Made by a program: the position numbers and the translations under genes. Shown here piece after piece: positions 6,457-41,852 of a stretch of 64,000 nucleotides of DNA (position 1 is its first letter; each line of letters starts with the position of its first letter). The DNA is from a virus (Duplodnaviria > Caudoviricetes): IMG/VR virus record IMGVR_UViG_3300046518_000260, positions 11,276 to 75,275 of that record, one strand, 5' to 3'. The notes under the pieces are model-generated. The model worked only from the letters and a program-made list of their open reading frames with translations. It had not been told where the DNA came from and did no database searches.

Positions 6457-6568
6457 CCCCGCCCTTGGCCGCTAGGCCAAGGGTCCTCTACCCTTTTAAT
6501 AAAATGCCATCTATCGCACACAAATAAGCCCGGCAACGTGCCGGGCCTCTACCTACATTAGAAAATGC

Positions 6569-7249: not shown

Positions 7250-7540
7250 CCTTGATTATAAGGATTTCAACGGCAATGGCAACCCGCTTAATTCCTGCCA
7301 GTTGGGCCTTGGTTAAAATTCAGTTAACCCGCACAGCGCCACAGAGAGGCCCGTACAGGCGATTTCGCCCTTGGCCGGTATATCCATACCAACCGACCCC
7401 TGTTCTGCTAACTCCTTGTAATCGTTACATAATTTGCTTTTACCGCCTTGGACCCACGGGCCACGGGCCTTTAACGACTTATTAACCACACCCGCAACAC
7501 CCGCTTGCCGTCCGCGCCGAAATCCTTATAATTAGGGCAG
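7250..7540. promoter_or_regulatory. Divergent sigma70-type promoter cassette, copy 1
   Basis: Leftward TTGCCA-N16-TATAAT (7282-7255); rightward TTGCCG-N16-TATAAT (7505-7532); CtrA boxes at 7313 and 7471; conserved core 7334-7436. Confidence 0.75.
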
Positions 7541-7829: not shown

Positions 7830-7920
7830 GCCCTTTTTCCAACACCGATCGTTAAACTTTTAATAAAATTTTAGATATCGGTGCTAGGGCTTGGGGCCGT
7901 AGCCCCTTGCCTTTTCTGCG

Positions 7921-8374: not shown

Positions 8375-8710
8375 CCGATTATAAGGATTTCCGTTTTGGT
8401 GGCAAGCCCCTATTTCGCGCTTAGCAAGCGCCTTGGGGCCATGGTTAATTTTCAGTTAACAGCATTTTCAGCCTACCAAACCCCTGCAAAACCGCCATAG
8501 CCCCTCAGCGCCACAGAGAAGCCCGTACAGGCGATTTCAGTGCTGCCCGGTCCTACCATACCGACCGACCTGCGTTCTGCTAACTCCTTGTTTTCATTAC
8601 ATAATTTGGCTTTTGGCCGAATTTTACCCCAAAAGGGCGAAATTTACCATTTGTTAACCGCTTTTCCATGTGCCCGCTTGCCAGTTGGGCGGAAATCCTT
8701 ATAATCAGGG
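8375..8710. promoter_or_regulatory. Divergent promoter cassette, copy 2
   Basis: Leftward TTGCCA-N16-TATAAT (8405-8378); rightward TTGCCA-N16-TATAAT (8678-8705); CtrA box at 8445; core 8506-8608 nearly identical to copy 1. Confidence 0.75.
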
Positions 8711-8957: not shown

Positions 8958-9066
8958 GCACTGAGGGCAGCAGCCGTAAGGCTGCATTGCCTTTGCCCGA
9001 TATCTAAAATTTTAATAAAATGCCATCTATCGGGGCTAGGCTTGGGGCGTTTAGCCCCTTGCCGTT

Positions 9067-9279
9067 TCAGCAGAACCGTACCGCAAATACCCCGCTCAGC
9101 CCTGCCAGCGCCGCATCTAGCAGCCGGTCCGCGTAGTCGGCGTCGCCGCCCTGTTCGGTTTCGTCCGCCACAAGCGCAGCCCGCAGCCGGGCAATCGCCT
9201 CTTCGCGCGTGTCGCCTTGGCCGGTAATGCCCGTGGGCTCGCCATTTTCGGTCAGTTCGGCATAAATTGCATTTTCCAT
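9067..9279 (-). CDS. Hypothetical protein
   Basis: GAGG RBS; acidic 70-aa ORF. Confidence 0.6.
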   Translation of the reverse strand: MENAIYAELTENGEPTGITGQGDTREEAIARLRAALVADETEQGGDADYADRLLDAALAGLSGVFAVRFC

Positions 9280-9285
9280 AGCCTC

Positions 9286-9483
9286 TTAGCCCTTTGCTGC
9301 GTTGTCAGCCGCAATGGCGGCTTCGTTGCGGTCCATTACCATACCCTTAATCCACTCGCGGTTGCAATTCATGTAACCGGTTGCATCTACGCGGCGGTAA
9401 AAGTCGTTGGTGTTAAGCAGGTCGTGTTCGCGGGTGGCGGGGTTCCATACCAGCCCGGTAACAGTCCAAATTGCCTTGTCCAT
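9286..9483 (-). CDS. Hypothetical protein
   Basis: GAGGG RBS; promoter TTTACC-N16-TATAAT at 9544-9517. Confidence 0.65.
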   Translation of the reverse strand: MDKAIWTVTGLVWNPATREHDLLNTNDFYRRVDATGYMNCNREWIKGMVMDRNEAAIAADNAAKG

Positions 9484-9564
9484 AGCGTTGCCCTCTCGGC
9501 GTGTTTGCCTGCTCCGATTATACTGATATCCCAAGCCCGGTAAAGCCGCCTCTTGGGGCCATGG

Positions 9565-9770
9565 TTAACGGGCCGATAACGATCGTCCTTAATAAACATG
9601 GTTAACGCCGCCTTAGCGATCGCCCCGCGTTAACCTTAATTCTTTACCTTAACAGATCGTTAACATTAACCTTTCATTAACCTTATCAATTAAGGTTAAC
9701 GGGCCGTTAATATTAATCATCTGTTAACCATATTCGTTAACGTTAACAAGCGGTTAACGCAATCGTTAAA
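9565..9770. repeat. Phased array of CtrA-type boxes
   Basis: Perfect TTAA-N7-TTAA at 9649, 9666, 9696, 9713, 9743; one-mismatch copies at 9565 and 9602. Confidence 0.8.
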
Positions 9771-9879
9771 ATGCAACTCACCGCTCTGCGCCGCCCTCCG
9801 CCGGTCGCCAGCTTAGGCTGGCGCACAACCGGCTGGCAGCGCCGCCGTACAGGCATGCGCGCCCGGCTGATATATAGCG

Positions 9880-10068
9880 CTAGGGTAATCTAGATACAGG
9901 TAACGTCAGAATATACTCACACATAACTTTGACCATGGCGCGCTCAGCCTCAGAGGCACGCTCCAGCGCTTCCGCCACCTTGGGAGGTGCTACGGTAGCC
10001 GCGCGCCACTCTGCCGTTCTAAGGGCTCCTACGGCGCTTTCAAGCCTAAACAATATATCCTGTTTCAT
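9880..10068 (-). CDS. Hypothetical protein
   Basis: 62-aa ORF between the 28-bp array and the conserved 35-bp motif. Confidence 0.55.
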   Translation of the reverse strand: MKQDILFRLESAVGALRTAEWRAATVAPPKVAEALERASEAERAMVKVMCEYILTLPVSRLP

Positions 10069-10080
10069 GCTGCACCTACA

Positions 10081-10179
10081 AAATCAGACCGGCCATCATC
10101 CCCGCAGGAAATCAGACCGGCCACTTGGTTTCAGGAATATCGGACCGGCCACCCATGCGGGGGAATATCGGACCGGTCA
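10081..10179. repeat. Four 15-bp direct repeats at exact 28-bp period
   Basis: AAATCAGACCGGCCA-like units start at 10081, 10109, 10137, 10165, separated by different 13-nt spacers. Confidence 0.9.
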
Positions 10180-10425
10180 GTCATCCCGCATAGCGCGGTA
10201 TTGTCCGTCAGGCATGCATGCCGCGTCGGTCTCGTCAATCTCGTTGCCCTTCTCGTCAAGCACGGGCTTGCCGGAAGCATCGACAATCGTATACCACGGT
10301 TGCGCCCAAACGGCTCGTTGCATGGCGTCACAACGGGCAAAGGTCATCGGTCCGATAGCCGTGACTTCGCGCTGCCCTCCGCCCGGCAAGTTGTGCAGGA
10401 GCAGGAATACAACAAGTTCTTTCAT
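10177..10425 (-). CDS. Hypothetical protein
   Basis: 82-aa ORF coupled to upstream gene (GTGA/ATGA overlap). Confidence 0.6.
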   Translation of the reverse strand: MKELVVFLLLHNLPGGGQREVTAIGPMTFARCDAMQRAVWAQPWYTIVDASGKPVLDEKGNEIDETDAACMPDGQYRAMRDD

Positions 10426-10580
10426 GGCTTCACCGTTTCAATTTTGGTTACAGACAGGTGACCTTCCCCAAGCCGGAAGGCAATGAAAACCTTAGCGGCG
10501 GCGAGCACGCGCTCCTTTTCCGCCGCATGGGTGACGTGGTTCGGCACGTCGTATTCAATGACTACGCGCAAGCGTTTCAT
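10422..10580 (-). CDS. Hypothetical protein
   Basis: MKRLRVVIEY..., ATGA coupling. Confidence 0.55.
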   Translation of the reverse strand: MKRLRVVIEYDVPNHVTHAAEKERVLAAAKVFIAFRLGEGHLSVTKIETVKP

Positions 10581-10834
10581 GTCAACCTCGTTATCGGCGG
10601 CTGCAAGATCGCGTTGATCTGCACACCGATTTCCATATAGTCCCACACATACGCACGGTCTCTGTCGTTGCCAGCATAGAAATCGCAGTAGTTGCGGGCC
10701 GCTGCCAACGTGCTCGGGTAGTCGTCCTGAACGACCACATACAACACCTTGTCTTCAACCGTTGTGTGGCTAAAGTCGCTATCCATACCGCCGCTCGTGG
10801 CAACGCGATGGTGCACGGTCCCACGGTATTTCAT
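10577..10834 (-). CDS. Hypothetical protein
   Basis: MKYRGTVHH..., co-oriented. Confidence 0.55.
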   Translation of the reverse strand: MKYRGTVHHRVATSGGMDSDFSHTTVEDKVLYVVVQDDYPSTLAAARNYCDFYAGNDRDRAYVWDYMEIGVQINAILQPPITRLT

Positions 10835-10845
10835 GGTTAACAGCT

Positions 10846-11025
10846 TCACAGGCCCTGCTCCTTCACCCATTGCTGCAAGGCTTCCGTGACCTTAACAGCG
10901 GTTTCATGCATCTGCTCGCGGGCTGCCATGCGCTTGCCGCCCGGCTCCTGCTCAACAAGCCCGTGCGTCGTCTTGGCGGCTGCATAGTTGTTCAGCAAGC
11001 CGCGTATGTCCAACATCGTTACCAT
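10846..11025 (-). CDS. Hypothetical protein
   Basis: TGATG coupling to the upstream gene. Confidence 0.5.
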   Translation of the reverse strand: MVTMLDIRGLLNNYAAAKTTHGLVEQEPGGKRMAAREQMHETAVKVTEALQQWVKEQGL

Positions 11026-11300
11026 CAGTCTCGCTCCCATTTGCCACAGCGCTTGCAATAGCGCGTCGGTCCAGCCGCATCAAAACCTTGCTGCCAAAGG
11101 TGTTCACACTCCATCTTTGGGGCCGGATTAGCCGCAAGGAATTCGTCCACGGCGCGCATCAGCTCAACCGTCGCTTCCCTGTACAGCGTGACCGCCGCCG
11201 TTGCATCTGCCATGGAAATGACTTGGTCAATGGCGGTTGCGCACTTTGCCGCCTCAGTGCGCAAGTCTTCAATCGTCTTGGTCTTCGTCGCTTTCGTCAT
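11025..11300 (-). CDS. Hypothetical protein with C-terminal Zn-ribbon-like motif
   Basis: CEHLW...YCKRCGK. Confidence 0.6.
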   Translation of the reverse strand: MTKATKTKTIEDLRTEAAKCATAIDQVISMADATAAVTLYREATVELMRAVDEFLAANPAPKMECEHLWQQGFDAAGPTRYCKRCGKWERD

Positions 11301-11469
11301 CGTCTTCGTCCCCTTCTGCCTCTTCGGCTTCGTCCAGCAGTTTTCCCCACTTGGCCTCATATTCAGCTTCGGTCATAGGCTTGCGCTTTGCGTCCGCTAT
11401 TTCAGCTTCCGCCCGGCGCTTTTCAGCCTCGGCCTCAATCCATTCTTCAAGACCCTTGATGGTTCCCAT
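11269..11469 (-). CDS. Small acidic hypothetical protein
   Basis: AAGGA RBS; acidic tail. Confidence 0.55.
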   Translation of the reverse strand: MGTIKGLEEWIEAEAEKRRAEAEIADAKRKPMTEAEYEAKWGKLLDEAEEAEGDEDDDESDEDQDD

Positions 11470-11479
11470 TTCGGTTCCT

Positions 11480-11860
11480 TCAGCGTACCAGCATCTTCAA
11501 AATCTTCATCATGTCGCGGTCAAACTTCTCGCCGTCGGTCAACACCCGACGCGGCTTGCGTTCGCGGTCATGAATGTATTCGCGAATAAGTTCGCGGTCT
11601 TTCAGGTCACGGGCAATCTGCCGGGCGGCTTCTTCCTTGCGGCGCTGTTCGGTTTCAGCGTTGCCTTCCGCCAGCTTTTCAGCAATCTCGTGCTGCCGGG
11701 CTGCGTAGGTTTCCAGCTCGCCCAATGCCAGCTTAGCCCGGTTGGTCAGCATTACCAGCGGCACGCCATTATCTTCAGCCACGCTGGCAAGTGCCACTTT
11801 GGGGTCGGTCCCGTTCAGCAGTTCAGCCTTAACGTCTTCAATCGCTGTAAGAATGTCCAT
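11480..11860 (-). CDS. Hypothetical protein
   Basis: AAGGAG RBS before ATG 11860. Confidence 0.65.
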   Translation of the reverse strand: MDILTAIEDVKAELLNGTDPKVALASVAEDNGVPLVMLTNRAKLALGELETYAARQHEIAEKLAEGNAETEQRRKEEAARQIARDLKDRELIREYIHDRERKPRRVLTDGEKFDRDMMKILKMLVR

Positions 11861-11936
11861 GTGCCTTGCTCCTTGTGTTGAAATCACCATACTGATTTCC
11901 ACGGGCCACGCAACCGCAACCCTGAACAATGGTTAA

Positions 11937-12128
11937 TTATTCCTTATGCTCCAGCCGCCAAAGGTAGGGCAGCAACGCCTTAAGCCTTGGCAGATCATAG
12001 CCGCTATCCAGCAGCAACGCGACCGAATAGAACATGCGTTCCTTTTGCGGCAAGCCCTCGACCAGCATCTCCGCCGTGCGGGCTAGCTCTTGGTCCAGCG
12101 TGCCGCCTATTCGTGGTTCATCAAACAT
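11937..12128 (-). CDS. Hypothetical protein
   Basis: GGAGG RBS. Confidence 0.6.
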   Translation of the reverse strand: MFDEPRIGGTLDQELARTAEMLVEGLPQKERMFYSVALLLDSGYDLPRLKALLPYLWRLEHKE

Positions 12129-12568
12129 GCGACTGCCTCCTTGCGCAAGTCGGCGGCAAGCCGCCAGTCGGTTTCCTCGGGCCTCAGCACGCGAATATCA
12201 AGCCACGAATTGCGGTTGCAGCCGAACACGGTCCGCGACCACTTGGAAGCGGTATCGAATAGCACAGCATTGCCGCTTATCTGCGCTTCAATCCTGCCAT
12301 CCTTGACAACCGCAAGGAAGCGTTCGGTCCGGTATGTCATGTACATCTTTGTTCCATGCGGCAGCGTCACCGCGCCCCATACCAGCGGCTTGCCGACGCG
12401 CTCCTGCCGGGCAAGCAACTTTACCCGCCAATCTTCGCTAAGCCGTTCAACGGCTTGCTGCATGGCGTTTTCGAACAGGTCTAGCGGGTTAACCCTGCCG
12501 CTGGTCAGGCGCACGACCTTTTCGTACAGCTTGCGCGGCACAGGGATGTATATGTGGTCTTTGTCCAT
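12107..12568 (-). CDS. RHH-like N-terminus plus RAMA-like domain
   Basis: HIYIPVPRKLYEKV (RHH-like strand-helix) and LPHGTKMYMTY...FDTASKWSRTVFGCNRNSWLDI (RAMA-like S-x-W...G...N-x-W pattern). Confidence 0.55.
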   Translation of the reverse strand: MDKDHIYIPVPRKLYEKVVRLTSGRVNPLDLFENAMQQAVERLSEDWRVKLLARQERVGKPLVWGAVTLPHGTKMYMTYRTERFLAVVKDGRIEAQISGNAVLFDTASKWSRTVFGCNRNSWLDIRVLRPEETDWRLAADLRKEAVACLMNHE

Positions 12569-13017
12569 CAGTATACCTGCCCGCGACCGCGCCCGGTCCG
12601 CTCATACGCAAGGTCAGGCTTTTGGGTCGTGCTCGTGTATTCCACGGCCAAGGTCCGCCTGCGACCGCGCCCGTTGCAAAACCATGTCGTCGTCAGCTGG
12701 TGCCCGATACGGTCCATCCACAGCCCTTCACCGCGCCACCATGGCATCCCAACAAAGCCAAGTCCGACCAGCGTCTTGCGCAACTCTACCAAGTCCTCGG
12801 CGTGCGCCATCGGCAATTCCCACCGCGTCGTCAGTATGGTCGCAATGCTTTGGTGCGCATTGGGGAAGTCGCCATCCGGAATTCCCCTATGGCTGGTGTA
12901 GCGGCTGGTCGCCGTGGCGGTTTTCTCCGAGACAAACTCGTACTCCATGGCAACCATGAACGCGGTAATTGTCTTGCGCACGGGCAAGGTGCGCGGCTTC
13001 TTTACGGGCTTGCTCAT
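12568..13017 (-). CDS. Hypothetical protein
   Basis: 149 aa; stop/start overlap with neighbours. Confidence 0.6.
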   Translation of the reverse strand: MSKPVKKPRTLPVRKTITAFMVAMEYEFVSEKTATATSRYTSHRGIPDGDFPNAHQSIATILTTRWELPMAHAEDLVELRKTLVGLGFVGMPWWRGEGLWMDRIGHQLTTTWFCNGRGRRRTLAVEYTSTTQKPDLAYERTGRGRGQVY

Positions 13018-13202
13018 TAGCGTCTATCCTCCACCGCATCAAACGTCTTGCCGTCATGGCGCACGGTCCATTTCAGGGCCTCAACGCTCTTGGCCTGATA
13101 CACCTCAATCACGCGACGCGGCTGCCCGTCAGGTCCGCCTACCAACGCTCCCATGACGGGAAATTTGTTGCTAACGCCATTCATAATTTCCAGCGTGTTC
13201 AT
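13017..13202 (-). CDS. Hypothetical protein
   Basis: Coupled small ORF. Confidence 0.55.
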   Translation of the reverse strand: MNTLEIMNGVSNKFPVMGALVGGPDGQPRRVIEVYQAKSVEALKWTVRHDGKTFDAVEDRR

Positions 13203-13639
13203 GCGCCTATTAACTCCGTCAGCCCCAAGGTTTCCAGTACCGTGTCGGCGTATGCAGCTTCGCGCGGGAAGTCCACAATGTCGCCAATGGAAAGCACGCC
13301 ATTTTCGTCGCGCACAAATACCACGGTCCGCGCCGTGTTCGGCTCTTCAATGCAAATCTCGGTAAAGGCCGTGGTCCCTAAATCGTCCCACATCGTGGGC
13401 ACTGGAAATTCGGTCGCCTCGTTAAGCGCATCGCTCAGGGCCTCTAATTCTTCACGCAAGGCATTAGCCCGCGCGGTCATGGCCGCAAGCTCCGAACGCT
13501 TTACCATCGTCGGGCCGCGCTGGCACAAACTGGCGCTCAGCAGCGGCCAAGTCTTGGCGCGCTCGCCTTGGAACCTTTGGGCCGCAAGCCCGATATTCTC
13601 AAGCTTCACGGCAATGTCGGTCAACTGTGCTCGGTTCAT
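13199..13639 (-). CDS. Hypothetical protein
   Basis: AAGGAG RBS before ATG 13639. Confidence 0.65.
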   Translation of the reverse strand: MNRAQLTDIAVKLENIGLAAQRFQGERAKTWPLLSASLCQRGPTMVKRSELAAMTARANALREELEALSDALNEATEFPVPTMWDDLGTTAFTEICIEEPNTARTVVFVRDENGVLSIGDIVDFPREAAYADTVLETLGLTELIGA

Positions 13640-13835
13640 GGTCAGTGCTCCTTGTTCGTTGATCCCATAAAGCATTTCCCGGAACCGGGCGCAATGCCTA
13701 TCGTTACAACATGGTTAACAAATCGCCCTATGGCCTCAGAGCCACAGAGAAGCCCGTACAAGCGATCTCTGTGTGATCGAGTATATCCATACCGACCCAA
13801 AGCTCCGAGGCTATCTACTTGTAATCGTTATACTT

Positions 13836-14045
13836 TTAGCCGCGCTCCCGTGGTATTCCATTCATTGCCATGAAGTGCGCCGCTTGTGCGATCAGCTCCA
13901 TAGCGGTTGCCAGCCGGTCTATTGCCTCGACGGTTTCCCACCGCAACGCAAAATCCTTTTGCTCACTGTTCAGCCGTTCGTCGGTCAATACCGCATGCCG
14001 GTTCTTGCTCCGCGTTGCGAAGTCAGCCCTTGGGGTCTCTTCCAT
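13836..14045 (-). CDS. Hypothetical protein
   Basis: GGAGG RBS before ATG 14045. Confidence 0.55.
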   Translation of the reverse strand: MEETPRADFATRSKNRHAVLTDERLNSEQKDFALRWETVEAIDRLATAMELIAQAAHFMAMNGIPRERG

Positions 14046-14241
14046 CCATTTCCTCCAATACCGCGCGAGCAAGGTGCTCCGCTTCCATGTGCAGTTTAGC
14101 GATTTCCTGCCTGATACGCTGACGCCAAAAGCCGTATTGACGGCGCTGCAATGCCAGCGGCGGTCCGCGTCTCAGTGCCCGTTCCAACTCGTTGGCGCGA
14201 GCGACCGCGCCAATCATCCGCATTAATGCCGTGCGCCGCAT
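14023..14241 (-). CDS. Hypothetical basic protein
   Basis: Fills the gap between co-oriented genes. Confidence 0.4.
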   Translation of the reverse strand: MRRTALMRMIGAVARANELERALRRGPPLALQRRQYGFWRQRIRQEIAKLHMEAEHLARAVLEEMDGRDPKG

Positions 14242-14243
14242 GG

Positions 14244-14882
14244 CTAAATCCAAGCCTTGACGGCAAGCTCGACATCGCGCCGGTAAAAGCCGCCAGCAAC
14301 CGACTGTACTGCGTGGACGTAGTTGCTACCTTGCCAAATCCGCATGGTCAGTGACGTGCCGCTCGTGTTAAACGTGCAGTCCAGTCCCACGGCTTTGATA
14401 AAAGCCTCAGCCCACTTGTAATGCACTTCGTATTCAGCATCGCTAGGGGCGTTTAGAACGGTCTCCAGCGCGTCCTTGGCTTTGTAGGTGCGTAGCCACT
14501 CCAACCGCGCCGTTGCGTTCTTGAGCCAATCTAGGGCCTCTGAGGGCACATCTGGCACATCTGGCGCAGCTGGTGCCACCACTTCCGCACAGTACAACGG
14601 GCCAACGCCGAACGCGGCATCACATTTCCTGCATCGCGATGAATAATAGTCAGGTTCGGCTGTCCCCCAAGTATGCGGAATTCGCTTGGGGTCGATCTTG
14701 TCAGCCCGCATAGACGCCGACCGCGACCAAAGCACAATGCCGTCACCGTCCAAGCACGCAACGTTGAAATCGCCCTTGTCGGCGTATACCACAATCAGGT
14801 TTCCCGGGCCATCAATCGGCGTCATCGAAACAATGTATTCCAGCCCGTAAGGCGCAAGCGCGTCCCGAATTTTCTCAAGCAT
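14244..14882 (-). CDS. Hypothetical protein with internal Zn-ribbon-like motif
   Basis: PHTW...RCRKCD...PLYC. Confidence 0.65.
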   Translation of the reverse strand: MLEKIRDALAPYGLEYIVSMTPIDGPGNLIVVYADKGDFNVACLDGDGIVLWSRSASMRADKIDPKRIPHTWGTAEPDYYSSRCRKCDAAFGVGPLYCAEVVAPAAPDVPDVPSEALDWLKNATARLEWLRTYKAKDALETVLNAPSDAEYEVHYKWAEAFIKAVGLDCTFNTSGTSLTMRIWQGSNYVHAVQSVAGGFYRRDVELAVKAWI

Positions 14883-15001
14883 TTTTCCCTGCTCCGTTAA
14901 TTGATTATAGTGTCCCCGCCATCCCTAGCGGGGACACCATGCCATGGTCGCGTTGGCGGACAAACGACCATGCCGGTATTGCTAGGACAGGTTGAATTAC
15001 C

Positions 15002-15322
15002 CTAGCAATTCTTCAAGCTCGCTTCCATGCTGTCAGCCAACCGCGTCACCGCTTCGGCGTTCCAAACTTCGTCAGTTGTCAGCTCAATATCGACCGTGCC
15101 GACCAACTGGAACATCACCGGATTAAATGCCCGGTTCGGCTTGCTCACATAGGAAAAGGCAAACTTGCGGTCTGCAATGGTCACGTTGATAATTCCGACC
15201 ATAAAGTCCAGCAACAACTCTTCCGGTATGTCGTCGGTGAACAAGAGTTGCCCTTGCGCATTAAGAAAATGCACGGTTATCTTGCCGTCTTGGCTATGCA
15301 TTAGAATATCCTTTTCCACCAA
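15002..15322 (-). CDS. Hypothetical protein
   Basis: 106-aa co-oriented ORF. Confidence 0.55.
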   Translation of the reverse strand: MVEKDILMHSQDGKITVHFLNAQGQLLFTDDIPEELLLDFMVGIINVTIADRKFAFSYVSKPNRAFNPVMFQLVGTVDIELTTDEVWNAEAVTRLADSMEASLKNC

Positions 15323-15555
15323 GGCAAGCCGCGCGCTTCCCGCACGTCCTTTTGCCGTTTCATAAATCCCATCAGGTCAAGCGCTTGCTTGCCTTCATCC
15401 ATCTGCCAAAGCAGGTCTATGGAAGCTTCCATATCCAACTCAACTTCGGCCTGCTCACCGGCCTCGGTCGTAAAGGCAAAGCATACGCGGCTGAACGCGC
15501 GGTTCACGGTCCCGACAATTCGGGTGTCCAGCATTTGGGCGATCTTAATGGTCAC
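15301..15555 (-). CDS. Hypothetical protein
   Basis: 84-aa co-oriented ORF. Confidence 0.55.
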   Translation of the reverse strand: MTIKIAQMLDTRIVGTVNRAFSRVCFAFTTEAGEQAEVELDMEASIDLLWQMDEGKQALDLMGFMKRQKDVREARGLPWWKRIF

Positions 15556-15748
15556 GGCCTATCCCCGGAAATGTAATAATGACCTTTGTCTGATGCGGCG
15601 CATAGCCCAATTCTTCGGCTATCTCGCAAGCCACGACAACGGCTGCAACGAGTTGGTGTGGCTGGTAAATATCTACCCTAGCCACATGACGGTCCAGCGG
15701 TCCAACCTGAAGCCGGACCGCCGCTGTTTTCGTTTTGGCCTTAGCCAT
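15545..15748 (-). CDS. Hypothetical protein
   Basis: 67-aa co-oriented ORF. Confidence 0.5.
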   Translation of the reverse strand: MAKAKTKTAAVRLQVGPLDRHVARVDIYQPHQLVAAVVVACEIAEELGYAPHQTKVIITFPGIGRDH

Positions 15749-16427
15749 GGGTCAACGCCAGCTTGTCGTCCTTTTCGCCTTCGAGATGTCGGGCCAAATT
15801 TATTTTGTCCGCGAACTCTTTGGCAAGCTCGGTCTCGCCGACCTTAATGTTCTTGCTCGTCAAGCCTGTCTTGTTCTCGTTCATCCATGCCTGCGCCTCG
15901 TCCACATGCACCAGCGCCCGGCTATGGCCGCCCGTTGCCGTGGCAAGTTGCTCCTGTGCATCAATCAAGCGCCGAATACGGAAGTAAAAGGCGTCGCACA
16001 CATCTTCCATGCTTTTCTTCATGGAAAAGTAAGTGCGTTTGCGGTATTCCGCCGCTTGGTGGCGCAGCTGGTCAACCACAAAGGGCAGCATCAGCGCTAG
16101 CGTTATCCGCGAGCTTTCTCGGCCAACCGCAAGGTAAGCGGTCATGCCGGGCTGCTTCTGGCGGAACACCTTGCAGCCGTAATATTCAGCCATGATCGGC
16201 GGAATAAGGTCGTGCCATTTGCGGTTAGTAAACGGCGCTACAAAGACCACTGACTGGTCAATCGCGTCGGTCTTCACCACGTCGCCAATTTCCAGCTGGT
16301 GCTCTTCCAGCATTTGCTGAGCCTTGGCCGCGAAGCTAGCGGCTTCATGCTCGTTGTCCGTGCCACCCGCCTTTGCGAGCAGGGCGGCAATTTTCTTCTT
16401 CAGCTTCTCCACGTTTTGCTTGCTCAT
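15741..16427 (-). CDS. DUF2786-domain protein
   Basis: KIAALLAKAGGTDNEHEAASFAAKAQQMLEEHQL is the DUF2786 pattern. Confidence 0.8.
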   Translation of the reverse strand: MSKQNVEKLKKKIAALLAKAGGTDNEHEAASFAAKAQQMLEEHQLEIGDVVKTDAIDQSVVFVAPFTNRKWHDLIPPIMAEYYGCKVFRQKQPGMTAYLAVGRESSRITLALMLPFVVDQLRHQAAEYRKRTYFSMKKSMEDVCDAFYFRIRRLIDAQEQLATATGGHSRALVHVDEAQAWMNENKTGLTSKNIKVGETELAKEFADKINLARHLEGEKDDKLALTHG

Positions 16428-16521
16428 TTCGATACTCCTTGGGGCTGCGTCATGCCGCCCTTGAATTCACACTATACTTTCCCTCCGTCTCTACAACTCT
16501 ATTCAGTGAACATGGTTAATA

Positions 16522-16677
16522 TTAATCTGTGTTAACGGCCTTGTTCACAAACAGAATTGTATAGTGGTCGGGGTTCTCGGTCATGGAAACTACTTCCCAA
16601 CCGACCGCTGCCAACTCACCAATCACTTCTTCGATTTCGTTGGCGTCTCGGGCTAGCCGGACCGTATATTGGCTCAC
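16522..16677 (-). CDS. Small DUF4177-like protein
   Basis: EEVIGELAAVGWEVVS...YTILF pattern; GTG start, GTGA overlap. Confidence 0.55.
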   Translation of the reverse strand: MSQYTVRLARDANEIEEVIGELAAVGWEVVSMTENPDHYTILFVNKAVNTD

Positions 16678-16913
16678 AGTAACTCCCCTTTGCTTGGTTC
16701 CGCCTTGGCCGTGAAGCACGGGCAAACAGCGCAATGTTCTATTAAGATGGACGCCTTTAGCGGAGGCCACTTGAAATCGTACTGTCGCGTAACGCTGACC
16801 GGCATGGCATATGCAGGGACCGTGAAGCCGCAACTATAGGCCCAATTCTTCCGCACGCGCACAACGCCATCAGTGTCCGGCTTCGCCTGCAGATGGATGC
16901 AATGTTTACTCAC
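16674..16913 (-). CDS. Cys-containing hypothetical protein
   Basis: GTG start; HCIH...YSC...HCAVCPCF. Confidence 0.5.
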   Translation of the reverse strand: MSKHCIHLQAKPDTDGVVRVRKNWAYSCGFTVPAYAMPVSVTRQYDFKWPPLKASILIEHCAVCPCFTAKAEPSKGELL

Positions 16914-17271
16914 CGCCGTCGTCCTCTTCCGGTATCTGTGCCACCAAAGGCGCGGCGGTATCGCTGAACGCCCGGCTAGGGCGGATGCGGCTTTCGGCAT
17001 TGCGGCGCACTGGTCCGTCGGCGTCGAAGTCGTCTGCAAATACCACGTCGATTTCGTTGCTGGTAACTTGCCAGCCCGTGGCGCTCCGCCGGTCCGCAAC
17101 CACGGTCACGGGCTTGTCGCCTTGCAGGGCTTTTATCGCCTTGCTGTTATCCGTCGGGTGCTGCATCGCCGACATTACCATGACCGGCGCTCCATTTCCG
17201 AGATTGTTATACTTGTGCTTGAAGCCAAGGCAATCAGCGTAACTGCGGACCCAATACAGCGTCTTGGTCAT
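16906..17271 (-). CDS. Hypothetical protein
   Basis: GGAG RBS, ATGA overlap. Confidence 0.6.
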   Translation of the reverse strand: MTKTLYWVRSYADCLGFKHKYNNLGNGAPVMVMSAMQHPTDNSKAIKALQGDKPVTVVADRRSATGWQVTSNEIDVVFADDFDADGPVRRNAESRIRPSRAFSDTAAPLVAQIPEEDDGGE

Positions 17272-17471
17272 GTCGGCTCCCTGTACGAAACCCGCACGCG
17301 TTCTGGGAAAACATACCAGTAACGCTCTGGCGTTCTGGCAAGCTCACGCATGGCCTGAGCGCGCAAGTGGTCCACAAGTGGGCCGCTGGTCCTGCCGTAC
17401 CAAACGCCATTCTGGAGCCACTCCAGTAGCAGCGGTTCGGCCTTCACTGTTCGGGATGATTGTCCAGCCAT
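17268..17471 (-). CDS. Hypothetical protein
   Basis: Coupled ORF. Confidence 0.55.
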   Translation of the reverse strand: MAGQSSRTVKAEPLLLEWLQNGVWYGRTSGPLVDHLRAQAMRELARTPERYWYVFPERVRVSYREPT

Positions 17472-17641
17472 TCCTTAGCCGCTCCTATCAGTTTGAATTG
17501 CACCTTGGGGTCAGCCTGCCCGATAATGATCTCGGCAAACTTGCGCTTCATGCCGTCGGACACATCCGTGCCGCGCATCAGGTGTCGCCCCATGGTCTCA
17601 AGCGAACTATCGCTCCAGCGGGTCATAGGTCCTCGCTCCAT
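17444..17641 (-). CDS. Hypothetical protein
   Basis: Coupled ORF; start uncertain. Confidence 0.45.
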   Translation of the reverse strand: MERGPMTRWSDSSLETMGRHLMRGTDVSDGMKRKFAEIIIGQADPKVQFKLIGAAKEWLDNHPEQ

Positions 17642-18057
17642 GTGTCTAGCTGGTAGTAGAACGTTTCCGCCTGCTCCTGCTCGCTATAGGTACGGTGCCA
17701 GTCGTGTGACCAAACCTCCGGGCCTTCCAGTATATCGTACCGTAGAGCGAAGACCAGCCATCCCCAAGGGTAAACACCCATACCGGGCTCAAATCGCCTG
17801 TACTCGCCCCTGAGCAGCCCTTGTGCTGGTCGTGCCACGGTATGGCCGAACAAATTCTGCTCCGCCTCACGCAATATGCCAATGTGCACGTCCATGTCGT
17901 CAATGTATGCTGGCTCGCGACCGTCCCAATGGATGACCTTGTGCCAGACTTTGCCGACCATAACCGCTTCGATTGGGTCCATTTCAATCTTAAGCAGGTT
18001 GCCGATCTGGCTCGCTTCCTGCTCGAAAATCACCCGTAAATGTGTCAACCTGCCCAC
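17623..18057 (-). CDS. Hypothetical protein
   Basis: 144 aa, GGAG RBS. Confidence 0.6.
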   Translation of the reverse strand: MGRLTHLRVIFEQEASQIGNLLKIEMDPIEAVMVGKVWHKVIHWDGREPAYIDDMDVHIGILREAEQNLFGHTVARPAQGLLRGEYRRFEPGMGVYPWGWLVFALRYDILEGPEVWSHDWHRTYSEQEQAETFYYQLDTWSEDL

Positions 18058-18116
18058 GCTTGCTCACTCCAATTTCAAACGGAAGATAGGGCGGGTTTCC
18101 CCGCCCTTGTATCGTG

Positions 18117-19091
18117 TTAGACCAGCTCGCCCGTGTAACCTGCCATCTGCAGCAAGTAGTCCTTAACGTCAAGCTTCACCTTGGCAAGTTGCCCGAAAGT
18201 GGAGTTTGTCAGCCGGGCTGCCGGGCTACGGCCTGCAACGTGGTCGGCGTAGTGGGTTACGCCATTCAGCAAGCCCCAAGCGTTTTCCGGGATTGCGCCC
18301 GGCGCTGAAACAACCGAGTGCAGCACCTCAGCCAATACCGGGCTCTGTGCGTCTGGGTTGACCAGCAACATTTTCACGTCGCTGGCATGCTCGGCCATAT
18401 CCGGCTGGAAGAACGTTGCCAGCGTCCGCACAGTGTCGTAAGCCGACATCTGCAGGCTGCTAAGCGCTTCGGCTTCCATCTTGTGGACAGCCACGCTTTC
18501 ACGGGCAAAGGCAAACGTTTCCTTAGCCTTGGACATGTCAAAGTCCTTCATGTGGTTCTGCCGGTATTCGGTCGCGCCGCCACGGGCGTTTGCCATTGTC
18601 AGCGTATTCTGGCAAACCACGCGGACCATTGTGGTCATGGCGCGGATTGATGAACCGGGCGCATGGCTGTTCGAAAGCAGCACATAGCCGTTCACAGTGT
18701 CACGGCCTTTCAGGGTAAAGCCCTTGTTGATGTTCGCCAGCGCCCAAATGGTCTTCCCGTCGTACAGGCTGCCAGCGGTTTCCAGCGTGGCGCTACCAGC
18801 GTCCACAAAGTCCCGGAAAAATTCCATCAGCTCGGCGTTCTGGAAAGGCTTCCAGCCCGTCGAAGAAACCGAAAGAATGCGCTTGTCGGTGTCGCGGGTA
18901 ACGGCAACCTTGTTCGGCACGGCAACCTCTTCGTCGCCAATCTTCACGAACATCGGGTGCTGCGATACAGCCCAATCAAGGCCCGCTGCCTTGGTCATTT
19001 CTTCGATGGAAGCGCCCTGCTCCAGCTTGTTGCCAAGACCGTGCCACGGGGTTGCGCCAACGTATGCCATGGTTTCAACTTCTGCACTCAT
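18117..19091 (-). CDS. DUF932 / TIGR03299-type phage-plasmid protein
   Basis: ETMAYVGATPWHGLG, AGLDW, ETAGSLYDGK, LLSNSH, VRVVCQNTL signatures; own promoter TTGCAT-N17-TAGGTT (19172-19144). Confidence 0.85.
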   Translation of the reverse strand: MSAEVETMAYVGATPWHGLGNKLEQGASIEEMTKAAGLDWAVSQHPMFVKIGDEEVAVPNKVAVTRDTDKRILSVSSTGWKPFQNAELMEFFRDFVDAGSATLETAGSLYDGKTIWALANINKGFTLKGRDTVNGYVLLSNSHAPGSSIRAMTTMVRVVCQNTLTMANARGGATEYRQNHMKDFDMSKAKETFAFARESVAVHKMEAEALSSLQMSAYDTVRTLATFFQPDMAEHASDVKMLLVNPDAQSPVLAEVLHSVVSAPGAIPENAWGLLNGVTHYADHVAGRSPAARLTNSTFGQLAKVKLDVKDYLLQMAGYTGELV

Positions 19092-19337
19092 TTTCGTCAC
19101 TCCTGTTTTGCGACCTTCTCGGTTCGCCGTTGCCAATGAGAGCAACCTAAACGAACATGTCAGGAAATGCAAGGCAGTTTGCCAAGGTTCGGCGGTAATA
19201 GTTAATGAAAAGTTAACGGGCGTTTTAGGTAGGCGACGCGCCACGGGCTGGCACTAGCTAGAAAGGGCGGCAAACCGGCTAGATTGGCCCGTGACGCGCG
19301 TTAGCGGGCTAAGCGGTACAATGTACCCGCCAATACC

Positions 19338-19646
19338 TCAAACGCTACTGGAGGCCTGCTCGTTGGCTTCGGGCAGGTCCGGTAACAGTCCGAGGAATTC
19401 ACGTTCGTGATCGTTGCCAACATCGTCAGCGCTAAGGAACCAATTGTCGTAGGCTTCTACGATCGTGGCGTCGCTGTACGGCGCAATCTCTTCCTTGAAT
19501 TTGTAGCGCAGGTTTCGCACCAAACTTTCGTTCCGAAATTCCACCTGCTCAGCCGTCAGCCTTCCCCAATTTGGGTCGTGTGGGACAGGCGACATTTCCG
19601 CCAATGCCTTTTCCATGTGGGCCTTCATCTCTTCCGAGTTGGTCAT
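19338..19646 (-). CDS. Hypothetical protein
   Basis: AAGGAGG RBS. Confidence 0.7.
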   Translation of the reverse strand: MTNSEEMKAHMEKALAEMSPVPHDPNWGRLTAEQVEFRNESLVRNLRYKFKEEIAPYSDATIVEAYDNWFLSADDVGNDHEREFLGLLPDLPEANEQASSSV

Positions 19647-19762
19647 GCTGTCCTCCTTCTATGCAACGTTACTAAAATGCAAGGCAGTTTGCAACGCAAT
19701 AAACAACAAGGTATTTTACGCCTAAAGAGGTAGCCCGACATTTCAGCCGGGCTTGCCAAGTG

Positions 19763-20020
19763 CTAAGCGGTAATATCGTCAAACAGCGTGCCGCCGTTCG
19801 GCCAATCTGGACCAAAGCGCATCGCCATAAACGTCACCCCGTCGTCCCACGTGAAGTAAAGGACTTCGCCTGCTTCCAGCTTGTGCACGGTCGCGCCTTC
19901 GGCCTTGGCTGCATAGGCCACCCGCCAGTTAAGCAGGTAGTCTGTCAACGTGTTACCGCTGCCAAAGTCGCCATTAGCAAGCCGCGCGGACAGGTCCGCA
20001 TGCGTGAGCAGTTCTTCCAT
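19763..20020 (-). CDS. Hypothetical protein
   Basis: AGGAG RBS; promoter TTGTAT-N17-TAGACT (20076-20048). Confidence 0.7.
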   Translation of the reverse strand: MEELLTHADLSARLANGDFGSGNTLTDYLLNWRVAYAAKAEGATVHKLEAGEVLYFTWDDGVTFMAMRFGPDWPNGGTLFDDITA

Positions 20021-20088
20021 AATATCTCCTATGTTGTTAACCTTGACAGTCTAGCAACCGCCGCTGTAAAATACAAGGTATTTTATTA

Positions 20089-20122
20089 AAAAAGAAAAGC
20101 CCGGCATTTGCGCCGGGCTTGT
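20089..20122 (-). terminator. Intrinsic terminator
   Basis: AAGCCCGGC/GCCGGGCTT stem followed by a T-rich tract on the minus strand. Confidence 0.75.
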
Positions 20123-20139
20123 TGGTGCAGGCTTGAAGG

Positions 20140-21054
20140 TTACTTGGCCTTCTTGTCAGCGGCAGCCTTGTCGGCAGCGACGGCGGCTTCGGAAGCAGCC
20201 TTGTCAGCGGCAGCCTTTTCGTCGGCAGCGGCCTTGTCGGCAATCTTCTTGTCTTCCTTGGCCTTCTTGTCGGCGTCAGCCTTGGTCTTCTTTTCGAGAT
20301 CGGCAGCGTCCTTTTCGGCCTTCTTCTTGGCCTTGGCTTCTTCTTCAGCCTTGGCCTTTTCGCCGGCGACGGCTTCGGCACTGACGCGGGCTGCATCGAG
20401 GGCAGCAATCTCGGCAGCGCGCTCTTCAGGCGTTGCGCCAGTCAGGAACACGATGTTGCCCTTGTCCAAGTCGTACTGCAAGTCCACGTAACGACCGCCA
20501 CCCGACTTCGTCAGGTATTCCTCGGTCGTGCAACCCGGATTTGCAATGATGTATTGCAAGGCATTGATGCCGACGCCCGTGCCGCCAATTCGGCGGCCGT
20601 TCAGGGCAGCGCCGGACCGTGCATAAAACTTGTTGGAAAGCGGCGAAGAACGGCCTTCGGCGGCTGCCTTGTTGGCCTTTTCCTTCGCAGGCTTCTTGGT
20701 CTTCAGCGCCGAAGCAAGCTTTTCGGTTTCGCTGGAACCGGCAGCCGGTGCAGCCTTCATGGAAGCCGCAACTTCCGTCAGCTTTTCAGCAAGCGCAGCC
20801 GAACCGATCTTGCGGTCCTTGAAACCGGCAACCTTCTTCGGCGCAATCTTGTTGTACGCCTCGACGATCGATGCCAGCGTAATTTCGTTGTCTTCGGCAA
20901 TGCCTTCAGCCGTGGTGATCGGTGCCTTGTCCGGGAAAGCCGTGGTAAAGCCGTCCTTGCCGTCAAGTTCGAGGAAGGCGCGAATTTTGACGCCATCCCA
21001 AGCTACGAAAAATGCTGCCGTTGCTGCCGCTGCCGTCGTTACGATATCATTCAT
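20140..21054 (-). CDS. Putative abundant DNA-binding protein with Lys/Ala-rich (histone H1/TolA-like) C-terminal tail
   Basis: GGAG RBS; strongly biased codons; central wHTH-like segment (GINALQYIIANPGCTTEEYL) and AADKA-type repeats; own promoter and terminator. Confidence 0.7.
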   Translation of the reverse strand: MNDIVTTAAAATAAFFVAWDGVKIRAFLELDGKDGFTTAFPDKAPITTAEGIAEDNEITLASIVEAYNKIAPKKVAGFKDRKIGSAALAEKLTEVAASMKAAPAAGSSETEKLASALKTKKPAKEKANKAAAEGRSSPLSNKFYARSGAALNGRRIGGTGVGINALQYIIANPGCTTEEYLTKSGGGRYVDLQYDLDKGNIVFLTGATPEERAAEIAALDAARVSAEAVAGEKAKAEEEAKAKKKAEKDAADLEKKTKADADKKAKEDKKIADKAAADEKAAADKAASEAAVAADKAAADKKAK

Positions 21055-21289
21055 TGCCGTTACTCCGTTGGGTTTGGTTTGATTTGTCGGCCTCGTTTGC
21101 CGCCGATGACCATACTTATAATCCATTCTCCGAACATTGCAAACGAAAAAATGGCCTCGGGCAAATTTTTCAGCAACTTTGGCCTAAGCCTTTGTTTTTG
21201 TTCGCATAAAACTTCACTCCCCTGCATTTGCCACACGGCCCACGGCCCCAAAGTGACGGGCTACACTCTATATATACATGAGAGCTGAT

Positions 21290-21520
21290 ATTTAAAATTG
21301 TTCATAATTTTATGTAAAATACAACCATTGGGGAATTAAGTAAAATTGTAGAAATAGTTTAATGAAAGTTTTATCATTTACAGATTGTCTAAAACTTTAT
21401 CAATTATGATTTAAGTAAAAGTTTATCAATTAAAGTTTATCTAAAATTGTATCAAACTGCCTTTTATTAAAATTGTATCTATCAACTATGTGGCATTTTA
21501 TTAAAATGCAATCTATCAGC
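21290..21520. repeat. AT-rich tract with 26-bp-period iterated motif (origin-like)
   Basis: TAAAA(C/G/T)TT(T/G)ATC-like units at 21364, 21390, 21416, 21442, 21468; abuts a very GC-rich block at 21520-21630. Confidence 0.65.
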
Positions 21521-21848
21521 TTTTGCTGCGCCGCAGCACGGCCTTGCCGCCGCCCGGTTGCCGGGCCTGCCTCCCGCGAGCGGGCGAGCGCGGCGCACGG
21601 AGCGGGGAAACCGGGGCAGCGGCGCGCGGCTGATATAAAGCGCTGGGAAATTAGATACAGTGAGCGATCAATGACCATGGATATTACTAGACGCAGCTCG
21701 GCCCGACGCACGGCTTCCGGGGTCCAAGGGGAATGTGAGCGTCGGGCCTAAATATATCTGGGCGTAATCCGCAACAGATGGTTCGCATGATGCTTCGGGT
21801 TCTATGGGCCTCACCTGACCTTTCTATTGTCAGAGCAAACTTGGGGCA

Positions 21849-21919
21849 AAATCAGACCGGCCATTCTCTCCGGAGAAAATCAGACCGGCCATCGATCGCC
21901 AGGAAAATCAGACCGGCCA
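21849..21919. repeat. Three AAATCAGACCGGCCA repeats at exact 28-bp period
   Basis: Units start at 21849, 21877, 21905; same unit and period as 10081-10179. Confidence 0.9.
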
Positions 21920-21920
21920 T

Positions 21921-22664
21921 TCAAGTTGAAACTTTATCGGCCACCAGCCCGGCAATCAGTTTCGCCTTGGCGGCTTTGAAGTCTTTTTCCCGTTCGCCGG
22001 AAACGACACCGTCAACCACACTCTGCGCTTCTGCGACAATGGCCCGGCATTCAAGCATGACGGAAACTTCAACTTCGCTGAGCACGAACTTGAAAACATT
22101 CTCCGGGATCGGCTCGTGGTAGTTGAACCTACCGCTGACTTCCCATGTCATTTCATAGTCGCCAGGATGCGCATAGGTAGTCGAAGATTTGGCAGGCTTC
22201 AACCGAGCAGGATCGTACTTTTTGACCGGCTCAGCGATAGCATCCCAATCTACCACTAGAGGTTCAGGTTCAGGGGCGAACGGAGCTCTGTTCCATTCTT
22301 CCAATGCATAGTCCAGCGCTTCGGCGAAGTCGCGGGCCTTCTTGATCGCTCTGGTGTAATTGTTGATCTTGAAATCAGAGTTCAAGTTGACCGTAGCGAT
22401 GATCGCTTTCCCGGTTAACGCCGCTCCAAGCTCGACGAGGGTGCCGCTATGTGCTTCACCCTGCTCGCGGAACAGAATGAAAATGTCACACTCGGCAGCT
22501 TCACTGATGCATGCTGCCCAAAGGTCGTCCCAATCGTGGGTGCTTCCGGGCTCAGCTTGATCGATCCAACTTGAAACGATCCTGAAACCGTCTGCACGCA
22601 GATCGCGCCAGCGCTGTGCCCATGTGGCCTTGCTCGCGATATAAATCTTTGGCCGCTTGTCCAT
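21921..22664 (-). CDS. Nucleoside 2-deoxyribosyltransferase-like N-terminal domain plus unknown C-terminal region
   Basis: KIYIAS...SSWID...ISEAAECDIFIL...SGTLVELGAA pattern. Confidence 0.65.
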   Translation of the reverse strand: MDKRPKIYIASKATWAQRWRDLRADGFRIVSSWIDQAEPGSTHDWDDLWAACISEAAECDIFILFREQGEAHSGTLVELGAALTGKAIIATVNLNSDFKINNYTRAIKKARDFAEALDYALEEWNRAPFAPEPEPLVVDWDAIAEPVKKYDPARLKPAKSSTTYAHPGDYEMTWEVSGRFNYHEPIPENVFKFVLSEVEVSVMLECRAIVAEAQSVVDGVVSGEREKDFKAAKAKLIAGLVADKVST

Positions 22665-25370: not shown

Positions 25371-25703
25371 CTAAGCTTCTTCCTTCGTGCCGATGCGGAC
25401 GAAGGTGTTTATGGTTTCTGTTATCGTGCGCTTGTGCTTCTTGCAGTAATTACGCAATAGCACGGCGGCGTCAGGTTCCAACCGCAAATTGATCCGACCC
25501 GTGGTCATTTTGCCGCGCTTGATCCCCAACTCCCAAAGCTTGGAATAAATCGAGGCTGGCGTGCGACCGAGCGCCCGGCCAATTTCCTTGGCCGTATGGC
25601 CGCGCGCATCCATTGCACGGGCTTTGTCGATATCTTCCTGTATCCACAACCGGGCGCTCATCGGCGTCGGTCTTTTAACAATCTTCCTTGGCATAACATC
25701 CAT
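25371..25703 (-). CDS. GcrA-like HTH fused to RHH-like domain
   Basis: WIQEDIDKARAMDARGHTAKEIGRALGRTPASIYSKLWELGI follows the GcrA N-terminal pattern; RINLRLEPDAAVLLRNYC...ITETIN is RHH-like. Confidence 0.6.
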   Translation of the reverse strand: MDVMPRKIVKRPTPMSARLWIQEDIDKARAMDARGHTAKEIGRALGRTPASIYSKLWELGIKRGKMTTGRINLRLEPDAAVLLRNYCKKHKRTITETINTFVRIGTKEEA

Positions 25704-33911: not shown

Positions 33912-34315
33912 AGAAGCCACGCACCGGACCCAATCAGCATATGCAGTCGCTGCAAGCGATTGTCAAGATGTTTGAGGAAGGCAAGGCTAAACAGTTCGCA
34001 ATCGTCTGTGATGCACATGTCATGGGCGAGCTAGTTGACCGTGGCGGCGCTGCCGTACAGGCGCTAGGCTACCCGGTTTTGTATAGCCGTCACATGGCCT
34101 CGATAAGCGGCGGCACCAACGATAATAAGAAAGGCTTGGGGCTTGAGATCAATTACCTCGCCCTGAACCACGATACTATCGACCGGTTGCGCGGTCGGCC
34201 TCTGTACGTTTTCAATATTGCCGAAATGGGTGTGCACACTTTGTCATTGGACAACCTGCGCCACCTCGACGACCTGATTGCCGAAATGAACTCCAGGATG
34301 GAACTACCCCAATGA
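33908..34315 (+). CDS. Hypothetical protein
   Basis: Coupled ORF between the exonuclease and polymerase. Confidence 0.6.
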   Translation: MKKPRTGPNQHMQSLQAIVKMFEEGKAKQFAIVCDAHVMGELVDRGGAAVQALGYPVLYSRHMASISGGTNDNKKGLGLEINYLALNHDTIDRLRGRPLYVFNIAEMGVHTLSLDNLRHLDDLIAEMNSRMELPQ

Positions 34316-37290: not shown

Positions 37291-37372
37291 AGACGTGCTG
37301 ATTAAATGGAGCCGGGAGCTACGGGAAGCTGCCGCGCTGGTTGACCAATTGTTGGGCGGTAACAAATCATGA
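37166..37372 (+). CDS. Small hypothetical protein overlapping the dnaE 3' end
   Basis: TTG start; ATGA-coupled to the primase-helicase. Confidence 0.45.
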   Translation: MKRHNRSRPLRAGPILERLLVVTGAMCGATSLALEVKRPIPKDVLIKWSRELREAAALVDQLLGGNKS

Positions 37373-41661: not shown

Positions 41662-41676
41662 CCGAGCAGGGAGCAC

Positions 41677-41838
41677 ATGCAGTTCAGAGTTAAAGTTGAG
41701 AGCCGGACGACCGGTTCTCTTTACACCCTTGATGTTGTCGCTAAAAATCCAGAGGCGGCAGCACAGATCGTTCGTAGCGAACACAAGGACGCTACGATCA
41801 TCACTATCAAGAAAACCAAGACGCCGCAAACGGCATAA
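41677..41838 (+). CDS. 53-aa hypothetical protein
   Basis: GGGAG RBS; MQFRVKVESRTTGSLYTLDV... Confidence 0.55.
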   Translation: MQFRVKVESRTTGSLYTLDVVAKNPEAAAQIVRSEHKDATIITIKKTKTPQTA

Positions 41839-41852
41839 CAGGAGAGACTATA

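Follow-up and report, generated by a model that had tools for sequence, protein, structure and literature searches.

The window analysed here is a stretch of 64,000 nucleotides, bases 11276–75275 of the 75,275-bp viral contig IMGVR_UViG_3300046518_000260 (hereafter G000), whose ends overlap by 127 bp, and the assembly is therefore circular. G000 is an uncultured ~75-kb phage of Alphaproteobacteria, a myophage with genes for a tail sheath, a major capsid protein, TerS (1028–1585) and TerL. It is a distant relative of Agrobacterium phages 7-7-1 and Milano; its capsid and terminase proteins are 44–56% identical to those of 7-7-1, Milano, OLIVR4 and Synechococcus phage Yong-L2-223 (TerL, 44–46% to the nearest cultured relatives), and no close DNA relative was found in the phage collection. 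Minus-strand genes run from ~28.4 kb down to 0 and continue into the packaging and structural genes, and a plus-strand replication module lies at 28.6–42.3 kb; the replication genes include a DnaE polymerase (34312–37290), a primase fused to a DUF5906 (SF3-type) NTPase (37369–39582) and an SNF2 helicase. Two loci among the minus-strand genes, A (9.56–10.18 kb) and B (21.29–21.92 kb), carry the same composite element, here termed the cassette. Given the direction of the genes, each locus therefore reads stop codon, iterons, spacer, two-box motif, GC block, AT-rich array, promoter(s) and next gene (Table 1). The cassette is real, conserved and under selection for its geometry; it falls within a known broad class, that of iteron-bearing cis-control regions, and its fixed layout is unusual.

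Table 1. Features of loci A and B and of the neighbouring gene 52, in window coordinates.
Feature	Coordinates	Strand	Description
Sigma-70-like promoter match (A)	9517–9544	minus	TTTACC-N16-TATAAT, 10/12; faces small gene 9286–9483
CtrA-box array (A)	9560–9770		five perfect TTAA-N7-TTAA boxes: 9649, 9666, 9696, 9713, 9743
GC block (A)	9777–9863		76% GC
Two-box motif (A)	9864–9899		plus-strand promoter-like CTGATA-N18-TAGATA, aimed at the iterons
Spacer (A)	9900–10078		GC inverted repeat, 9936–9943 and 10001–10008
Iteron array (A)	10079–10179	minus	four copies, 28-bp period
Gene 52	20140–21054	minus	conserved core, Lys/Ala-rich repeat tail; anchor for locus B in all relatives
Proximal sigma-70-type promoter of gene 52 (predicted)	21115–21142	minus	TTGCAA-N16-TATAAG
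TATATA-centred box	21264–21284	minus	kept in all relatives, ~200 nt upstream of gene 52
AT-rich array (B)	21290–21520	minus	231 bp, 21% GC; about nine degenerate ~26-bp units
GC block (B)	21521–21626		80% GC
Two-box motif (B)	21627–21660		plus-strand promoter-like CTGATA-N16-TAGATA, aimed at the iterons
Spacer (B)	21661–21846		10-bp GC hairpin, arms 21700–21709 and 21739–21748
Iteron array (B)	21847–21919	minus	three copies, 28-bp period (including by Tandem Repeats Finder, TRF)

A first-pass annotation had described one multi-part element of ~600 bp built twice, and every part of it was recovered at both loci, in the same order and the same orientation, with iterons and motif exceeding the expectation from shuffled sequence. 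The 13-mer ATCAGACCGGCCA (≤2 mismatches) occurs four times at 10083–10179 and three times at 21851–21919 with a period of exactly 28 bp, and its 10 matches in the window compare with 1.6 expected (0 of 100 shuffles reached 10). The 18-mer motif core CGGCTGATATAWAGCGCT (≤3 mismatches) is found only at 9864 and 21627, against 0.07 expected, and none of 100 shuffles reached two. Across all 75 kb of the genome, a GC content of 78% or more is reached only in the windows 9786–9846 and 21526–21636. The iterons begin directly after a stop codon at both loci, that of the gene at 10177–10425 (minus) in A and that of the gene at 21921–22664 in B; the latter position is held by a nucleoside-deoxyribosyltransferase-like protein in both G000 and its relative G001.

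Exact motif scans of IMG/VR yielded G001 alone (75.9 kb, syntenic with G000), and alignment with 16 proteins against metagenomes yielded L032–L034, L036 and L052. The product of gene 52 served as the anchor, and five related contigs were compared: G001, G002 (74.7 kb, reached via locus L036), L032/L033, L034 and L052; G000, G001 and G002 made up the three complete genomes. L052 (CAZCMS010000002.1, 76,146 bp) is filed in a ‘Candidatus Saccharibacteria’ metagenome-assembled genome, but the 20 kb fetched resembles phage G001 and holds the same cassette, so that it is probably a phage genome binned wrongly. The gene-52 product matches no Pfam or PHROG family, and its ~15 homologues in public data are all metagenomic; its tail is histone-H1-like, and of the early-region genes that our script called, this one ranks first by codon score.

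Comparison with related phages had been named beforehand as the check on whether the element is a cis machine of conserved geometry, and order, orientation and spacing proved to be kept in the five contigs. Upstream of the gene-52 homologue (protein 46–61% identical), 5/5 show the same ordered architecture: a stop codon is directly followed by the iterons, then by a spacer bearing a GC-rich hairpin, by TATATC boxes and the GC block, by an AT array made of degenerate boxes and by a pair of conserved promoter-like elements before the gene itself. G002, like G000, has two cassettes with an iteron of its own, the second full cassette lying 9.07 kb downstream. Taken as the distance between the last iteron's end and the point where the GC block starts, the spacer is 217 bp in G000 B, 216 bp in G000 A, 209 bp in G001, 213 bp in L052, 214 bp in G002 B, 216 bp in the second G002 cassette (A′), 215 bp in L032 and 235 bp in L034, that is, 209–217 bp in seven of the eight loci (mean 214.3, sd 2.7, L034 left out). 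Spacer sequence identity, with the close pair G001/L052 set apart, is 0.558 versus 0.549 in shuffles, and the spacer length itself seems to be under selection. Helical phasing does not account for it, as the lengths vary continuously within ~10 bp with no quantisation by turns. The anatomy of the cassette, its conservation, its copy number and the matching iterons in both copies of one genome are direct observations.

The iterons differ between genomes and agree within them. In each complete genome, tandem direct repeats (2–5 copies, period 20–29 bp) are confined to the cassettes; G000 has the ATCAGACCGGCCA iteron in both, whereas G002 has a different one, TCCGTTTnnnGATTT, in exactly four copies genome-wide, two per cassette. 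Iteron sequence, be it of the GGCCGGTC type or of the G002 type, thus tracks the genome and not the locus, which fits one genome-specific binding protein. Direct repeats found only in the cassettes, of genome-specific type and with one or two cassettes per genome, are the classic mark of a DNA-binding protein specific to its replicon, in most cases an initiator. The block upstream of locus B, including a small protein with helix-turn-helix (HTH) and ribbon-helix-helix (RHH) segments (25371–25703, minus), is replaced wholesale in G002. This protein, whose N-terminal HTH is followed by a C-terminal segment that is RHH-like by eye and not by any model, is present in G001 and L052, with no homologue detected in G002, and is a candidate iteron-binding protein. 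Three other proteins gave no clean correlation with iteron type: the primase-helicase has no domain conserved among the iteron-sharing genomes yet divergent in G002, the gene upstream of the iterons differs in L032, and the small protein before DnaE is divergent but present in all three genomes. No initiator was recognised among the proteins scanned, the variable block upstream of locus B included. A WYL-domain protein (L036 8226–8942; Pfam E = 1.9e-5) is the product of the penultimate gene ahead of the locus-B iterons in G002, and an 86-aa open reading frame (ORF) separates that gene from the iterons.

On the far side of the spacer, the motif is a pair of TATATC-type boxes 21–24 bp apart (three boxes in L032 and L034), after which a short conserved stretch borders the GC block. 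In G000 the two boxes are of TATC type and lie 21–23 bp from each other. In seven of the eight loci the motif also contains –35-like and –10-like hexamers, N16 apart, that face the iterons and border the GC block, such as TTGTCC-N16-TATAAG in G001 and TCGATA-N16-TATAAG in L032; the bases that separate the two hexamers vary. In two loci the –10 TATAAG is the same as that of the conserved gene-52 promoter, which reads TTGCAT-N16-TATAAG/C in the relatives. As TATATA is palindromic, the orientation of the motif is uncertain.

The AT-rich arrays of A and B had been reported to differ, and they do, with five perfect CtrA boxes in A (5/13 of those in the window, within the 110 bp at 9649–9743) and a 26-bp-period array in B (TRF, 21356–21455). 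Direct alignment also finds short blocks in common, TTATCAATTAA and TTAAAATGCAA. The sigma-70-like promoter match of locus A sits just downstream of its CtrA array. In locus B a TTAATAAAATGCC box (21492–21504), of the TTAATAAAAT(A/G)CC type (TAAAAT-type), opens the array next to the GC block; boxes of this type lie 48–60 nt upstream of four other minus-strand genes, often directly after a canonical terminator. Dense CtrA-site clusters in phage intergenic gaps have been described, as regulatory (PMC9437464). Because the boxes precede other genes and such clusters are so described, AT array and GC block are read as promoter and regulator DNA for the downstream operon, the GC block separating back-to-back promoters. 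The TATATA-centred box before gene 52 is a candidate distal promoter-like element or operator. Elsewhere, AT-rich ~37-bp boxes occur at 6485–6516, 7845–7881 and 8997–9033, each beside a GC hairpin; the latter two are nearly palindromic (core GCATTTTA / TAAAATGC) and lie within a 75-nt repeat (7845–7919, 8997–9071). Palindromic boxes akin to that of the locus B array are found at 6485, 7849 and 9001. A recurrent 12-mer, TAAAATA(C/G)CTTG, at 19718, 20085, 26065 and 28439 (minus), without a shared –35, lies 48–60 nt ahead of start codons, frequently with a terminator directly before it, and is a candidate phage-specific promoter class.

With respect to the contents of the spacer, which had also been held to differ, the hairpin of B stands, whereas A also has a GC inverted repeat and its 62-aa ORF (9880–10068, minus) is doubtful, with no homologue in the spacers of the other loci. 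In three loci the gene-sense strand of the hairpin contains a G.U wobble where the opposite strand has a C.A mismatch, and one outer pair is compensatory; the hairpin loops are 20–50 nt, mostly without a U-tract, unlike the canonical terminators elsewhere in G000. A small protein encoded in the spacers was rejected, as the ORFs range from 4 to 62 codons, are unrelated, and none is common to the loci. No common RNA fold was seen in the spacers on either strand, nor was a 6S-like rod or shared fold seen for a putative backward transcript of 175–194 nt, and a search of positions 1–30000 with Rfam 15 gave a single chance-level match (E = 0.39, 19.8 bits versus a gathering score of 100). G/C skew of the R-loop type in spacer or GC block is not consistent. 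In four loci, G000 B (~21811–21825), G001, L052 and L032, a Shine-Dalgarno-like AGAAAGG or AGGAGG with GTG/ATG lies 34–36 nt past the last iteron, and in G001 and L052 a 22-codon ORF after the last iteron stops exactly at the 5′ arm of the hairpin; such a site with its ORF could be an attenuator-like leader or a DNA motif.

The leading model, which we hold tentatively and by analogy with SPP1 oriL/oriR or P4 ori/crr, is that the cassettes are a paired iteron-type origin module placed within promoter regions. We infer protein binding, promoter activity and a replication function, as follows. Each locus would be a composite of two halves. In the origin-type half, the iteron array, the ~215-bp hairpin spacer and the two-box motif would form a nucleoprotein site: the iterons would be bound by a phage-specific protein, the 60–70 bp adjoining them (~33–45% GC by eye, versus 54% for the genome) could melt, the sigma-70-like promoter in the motif would fire over the spacer to the iterons for transcriptional activation or primer RNA, and the hairpin would fold on the exposed gene-sense strand. 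In the promoter half, the AT array would supply the operon that follows with promoter boxes and with sites for regulators (CtrA in locus A), and the GC block would keep the back-to-back promoters apart. One cassette would fire, and the other may serve as an additional origin, as a cis partner that is required, or as a barrier to forks by which the replication mode is switched. The phage has its own DnaE, primase-NTPase and SNF2 helicase, and therefore needs a dedicated origin.

Several observations weigh against this reading. There is no GC-skew inflection at A or B (a weak criterion for phages), and in each of the three complete genomes the cumulative GC-skew minimum falls near 28.4 kb, at the divergent junction. 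Between the iterons and the 21% GC array lie ~320 bp that include the GC block, and no part of locus A is strongly AT-rich (39% GC). The replication module is 6.7 kb away from the cassette, which is neither inside nor beside an initiator gene; no initiator was identified, and the primase-helicase has no domain that tracks iteron type. In G000 the promoter match of the motif is weak (7/12; TAGATA lacks the final T), and as the AT-array boxes recur at ordinary operon junctions, the AT half is explained by transcription alone. Finally, a second cassette was not found anywhere in the G001 genome, nor in L052 within 10 kb either side of gene 52. The suggestion of two alternative origins, made in the first-pass annotation, is plausible but qualified by the skew, the distant AT array and the primase-helicase; the further idea that one is host-gated and the other phage-gated suits G000 but not G002, where both AT arrays are of the same kind.

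In a close rival reading, only slightly less probable than the origin module, the cassette would be a boundary between transcription units, acting as a temporal switch, that ends one early operon and starts the next. The hairpin would stop or stabilise the upstream transcript, the backward promoter would oppose read-through, the GC block would insulate the forward promoters, and the iterons would be operators or RNA sites for a phage-specific regulator, for example the HTH+RHH protein, with locus B starting a middle block and locus A a CtrA-gated late block. Along transcription, both cassettes occupy precisely the interval that separates a stop codon from the following operon's promoters; the TAAAAT-type box recurs before the four other genes, two further conserved promoter-like elements precede gene 52, and locus A precedes the packaging and structural genes with its five CtrA boxes just upstream of the 10/12 promoter match, in a cluster of the kind described as regulatory (PMC9437464). 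The strand asymmetry of the hairpin also favours this reading, and the block with the HTH+RHH protein is replaced in the genome with a different iteron. On the other hand, operators are seldom 3–5 direct repeats of 28-bp period placed 180–300 bp from the nearest promoter, the long hairpin loops, mostly with no U-tract, do not resemble the canonical terminators of this phage, and neither an 80% GC block nor a spacer of fixed length is required by such a boundary; moreover, one cassette suffices in G001 and L052. An unlikely further possibility is a fixed-geometry ‘ruler’ complex of undescribed kind, in which a genome-specific iteron binder and a clade-wide TATATC-box factor would hold ~214 bp of sequence-free DNA beside a GC clamp. 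The paired copies would act jointly as a boundary device, for example one that arrests forks or loops out the 9–12-kb early block and so switches replication mode or temporal class.

Sites for other DNA transactions were also weighed. A pac site recalls the SPP1 pac, which overlaps promoters and where gp1 binds pacL and pacR around pacC (PMC6316719): the cassette has a similar layout, with iterons and TATATC boxes ~185 bp apart around a central GC inverted repeat, a length that is fixed and one side overlapped by a predicted promoter, and the cultured relatives are reported to package by headful. However, terS lies 8 kb and 20 kb from the cassettes, there are two copies in each of two genomes, and TerS is conserved in G002 (47% identity) despite the different iteron; as for a site of recombination, resolution or the partition type, scanning ~60 proteins yielded no recombinase or ParB-like gene. 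This group of explanations is accordingly rather improbable. Far less probable still are stepwise injection stops as in T5, proposed in the first-pass annotation, or the boundaries of a long terminal repeat. Terminal repeats of ~10–13 kb are found in T5 and SPO1, and two like elements in the same orientation, 9–12 kb apart and bracketing small early genes, would suit either idea. Yet the cultured relatives closest by TerL are reported as headful packagers (PMC6588377, PMC10132094), so that virion ends would be permuted with no fixed leading end, and only one cassette is seen in G001 and L052; assembly overlaps are uninformative on virion ends.

The claim that the element has no described equivalent was too strong, since two of its likenesses, SPP1 oriL/oriR (PMC6316719) and clusters of CtrA sites (PMC9437464), are on record. 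The lytic Bacillus phage SPP1 has two origins ~13 kb apart, each combining direct repeats with an AT-rich DNA-unwinding element (DUE) and both bound by gp38; its oriR is intergenic, with transcription signals on either side, and has been proposed to stall forks and to change the replication mode (PMC6316719). The cassettes are similarly two separated sites that pair direct repeats, for one putative phage-specific binding protein, with AT-rich DNA between transcription signals. In SPP1, however, the DUE adjoins the repeats, oriL is located in the gene for the known initiator, gp38, whereas in G000 the ~215-bp spacer, the two-box motif and an 80% GC block part iterons from AT array, cassette copy number differs among related genomes and no initiator is identified. 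The CtrA-cluster description resembles locus A, whose five boxes stand in intergenic promoter DNA of a phage that has flagellotropic Agrobacterium phages among its relatives, but covers only the AT side of locus A and not the iteron, spacer and GC parts; locus B and both G002 cassettes use other AT-rich boxes.

Other replicons offer partial parallels. Satellite phage P4 is a second precedent for paired sites: its two clusters, ori and crr, are bound by the alpha primase-helicase, and G000 is alike in having separated clusters of one iteron and in encoding a primase fused to an SF3-type helicase. The G000 enzyme differs in that it has no domain changing with iteron type, and the P4 iterons are octamers in both orientations, with neither GC block nor fixed spacer. 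Transcription-activated origins are known in lambda (ori with pR), T7 (primary origin with tandem promoters and an AT-rich region) and T4 (oriF/oriG, promoter and DUE); what the cassettes share with them is a predicted promoter whose distance to the origin-type elements is set, together with promoters flanked by AT-rich DNA, but here the promoter points to the iterons, away from the large AT array. The GCGGGACA repeat was not found in coliphage FEC19. Nor was the cassette found in the cultured relatives 7-7-1 and Synechococcus phage Yong-L2-223. Phage 7-7-1 (L038) does have a 770-bp intergenic region at 41210–41979, with terminators on both strands and an AT-rich segment with about five GANTC-containing repeats (ATTGAGTC / GACTCAAT), a repeat-rich gap that is analogous to the G000 cassettes but unrelated.

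Two further features of the genome were seen. Purine loading of the coding strand (G>C, A>T) is strong only in the early block, ~9.5–28.4 kb, from locus A to the divergent junction, whereas the structural genes, also on the minus strand, have almost none; the pattern is the same in G001 and G002. A family of 113-nt direct repeats lies at 7329–7441, 8501–8613 and 13732–13844, that is, in the sparsely coding 4–9 kb region and at 13.7 kb, with copies 81% and 66% identical to the reference copy.

The phages of this clade are known only from metagenomes, and the cassette offers short DNA targets, namely the iterons, the TATATC boxes and the predicted backward-facing promoter, for locating the start of replication and the timing of gene expression. 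A spacer conserved in length without conservation of sequence, together with one iteron in both copies, provides clean signs of selection on geometry and of a specific binding protein. The cassette is thereby a test case for how lytic phages join origin-type sites to operon boundaries, and for how the host regulator CtrA is tied into one copy.

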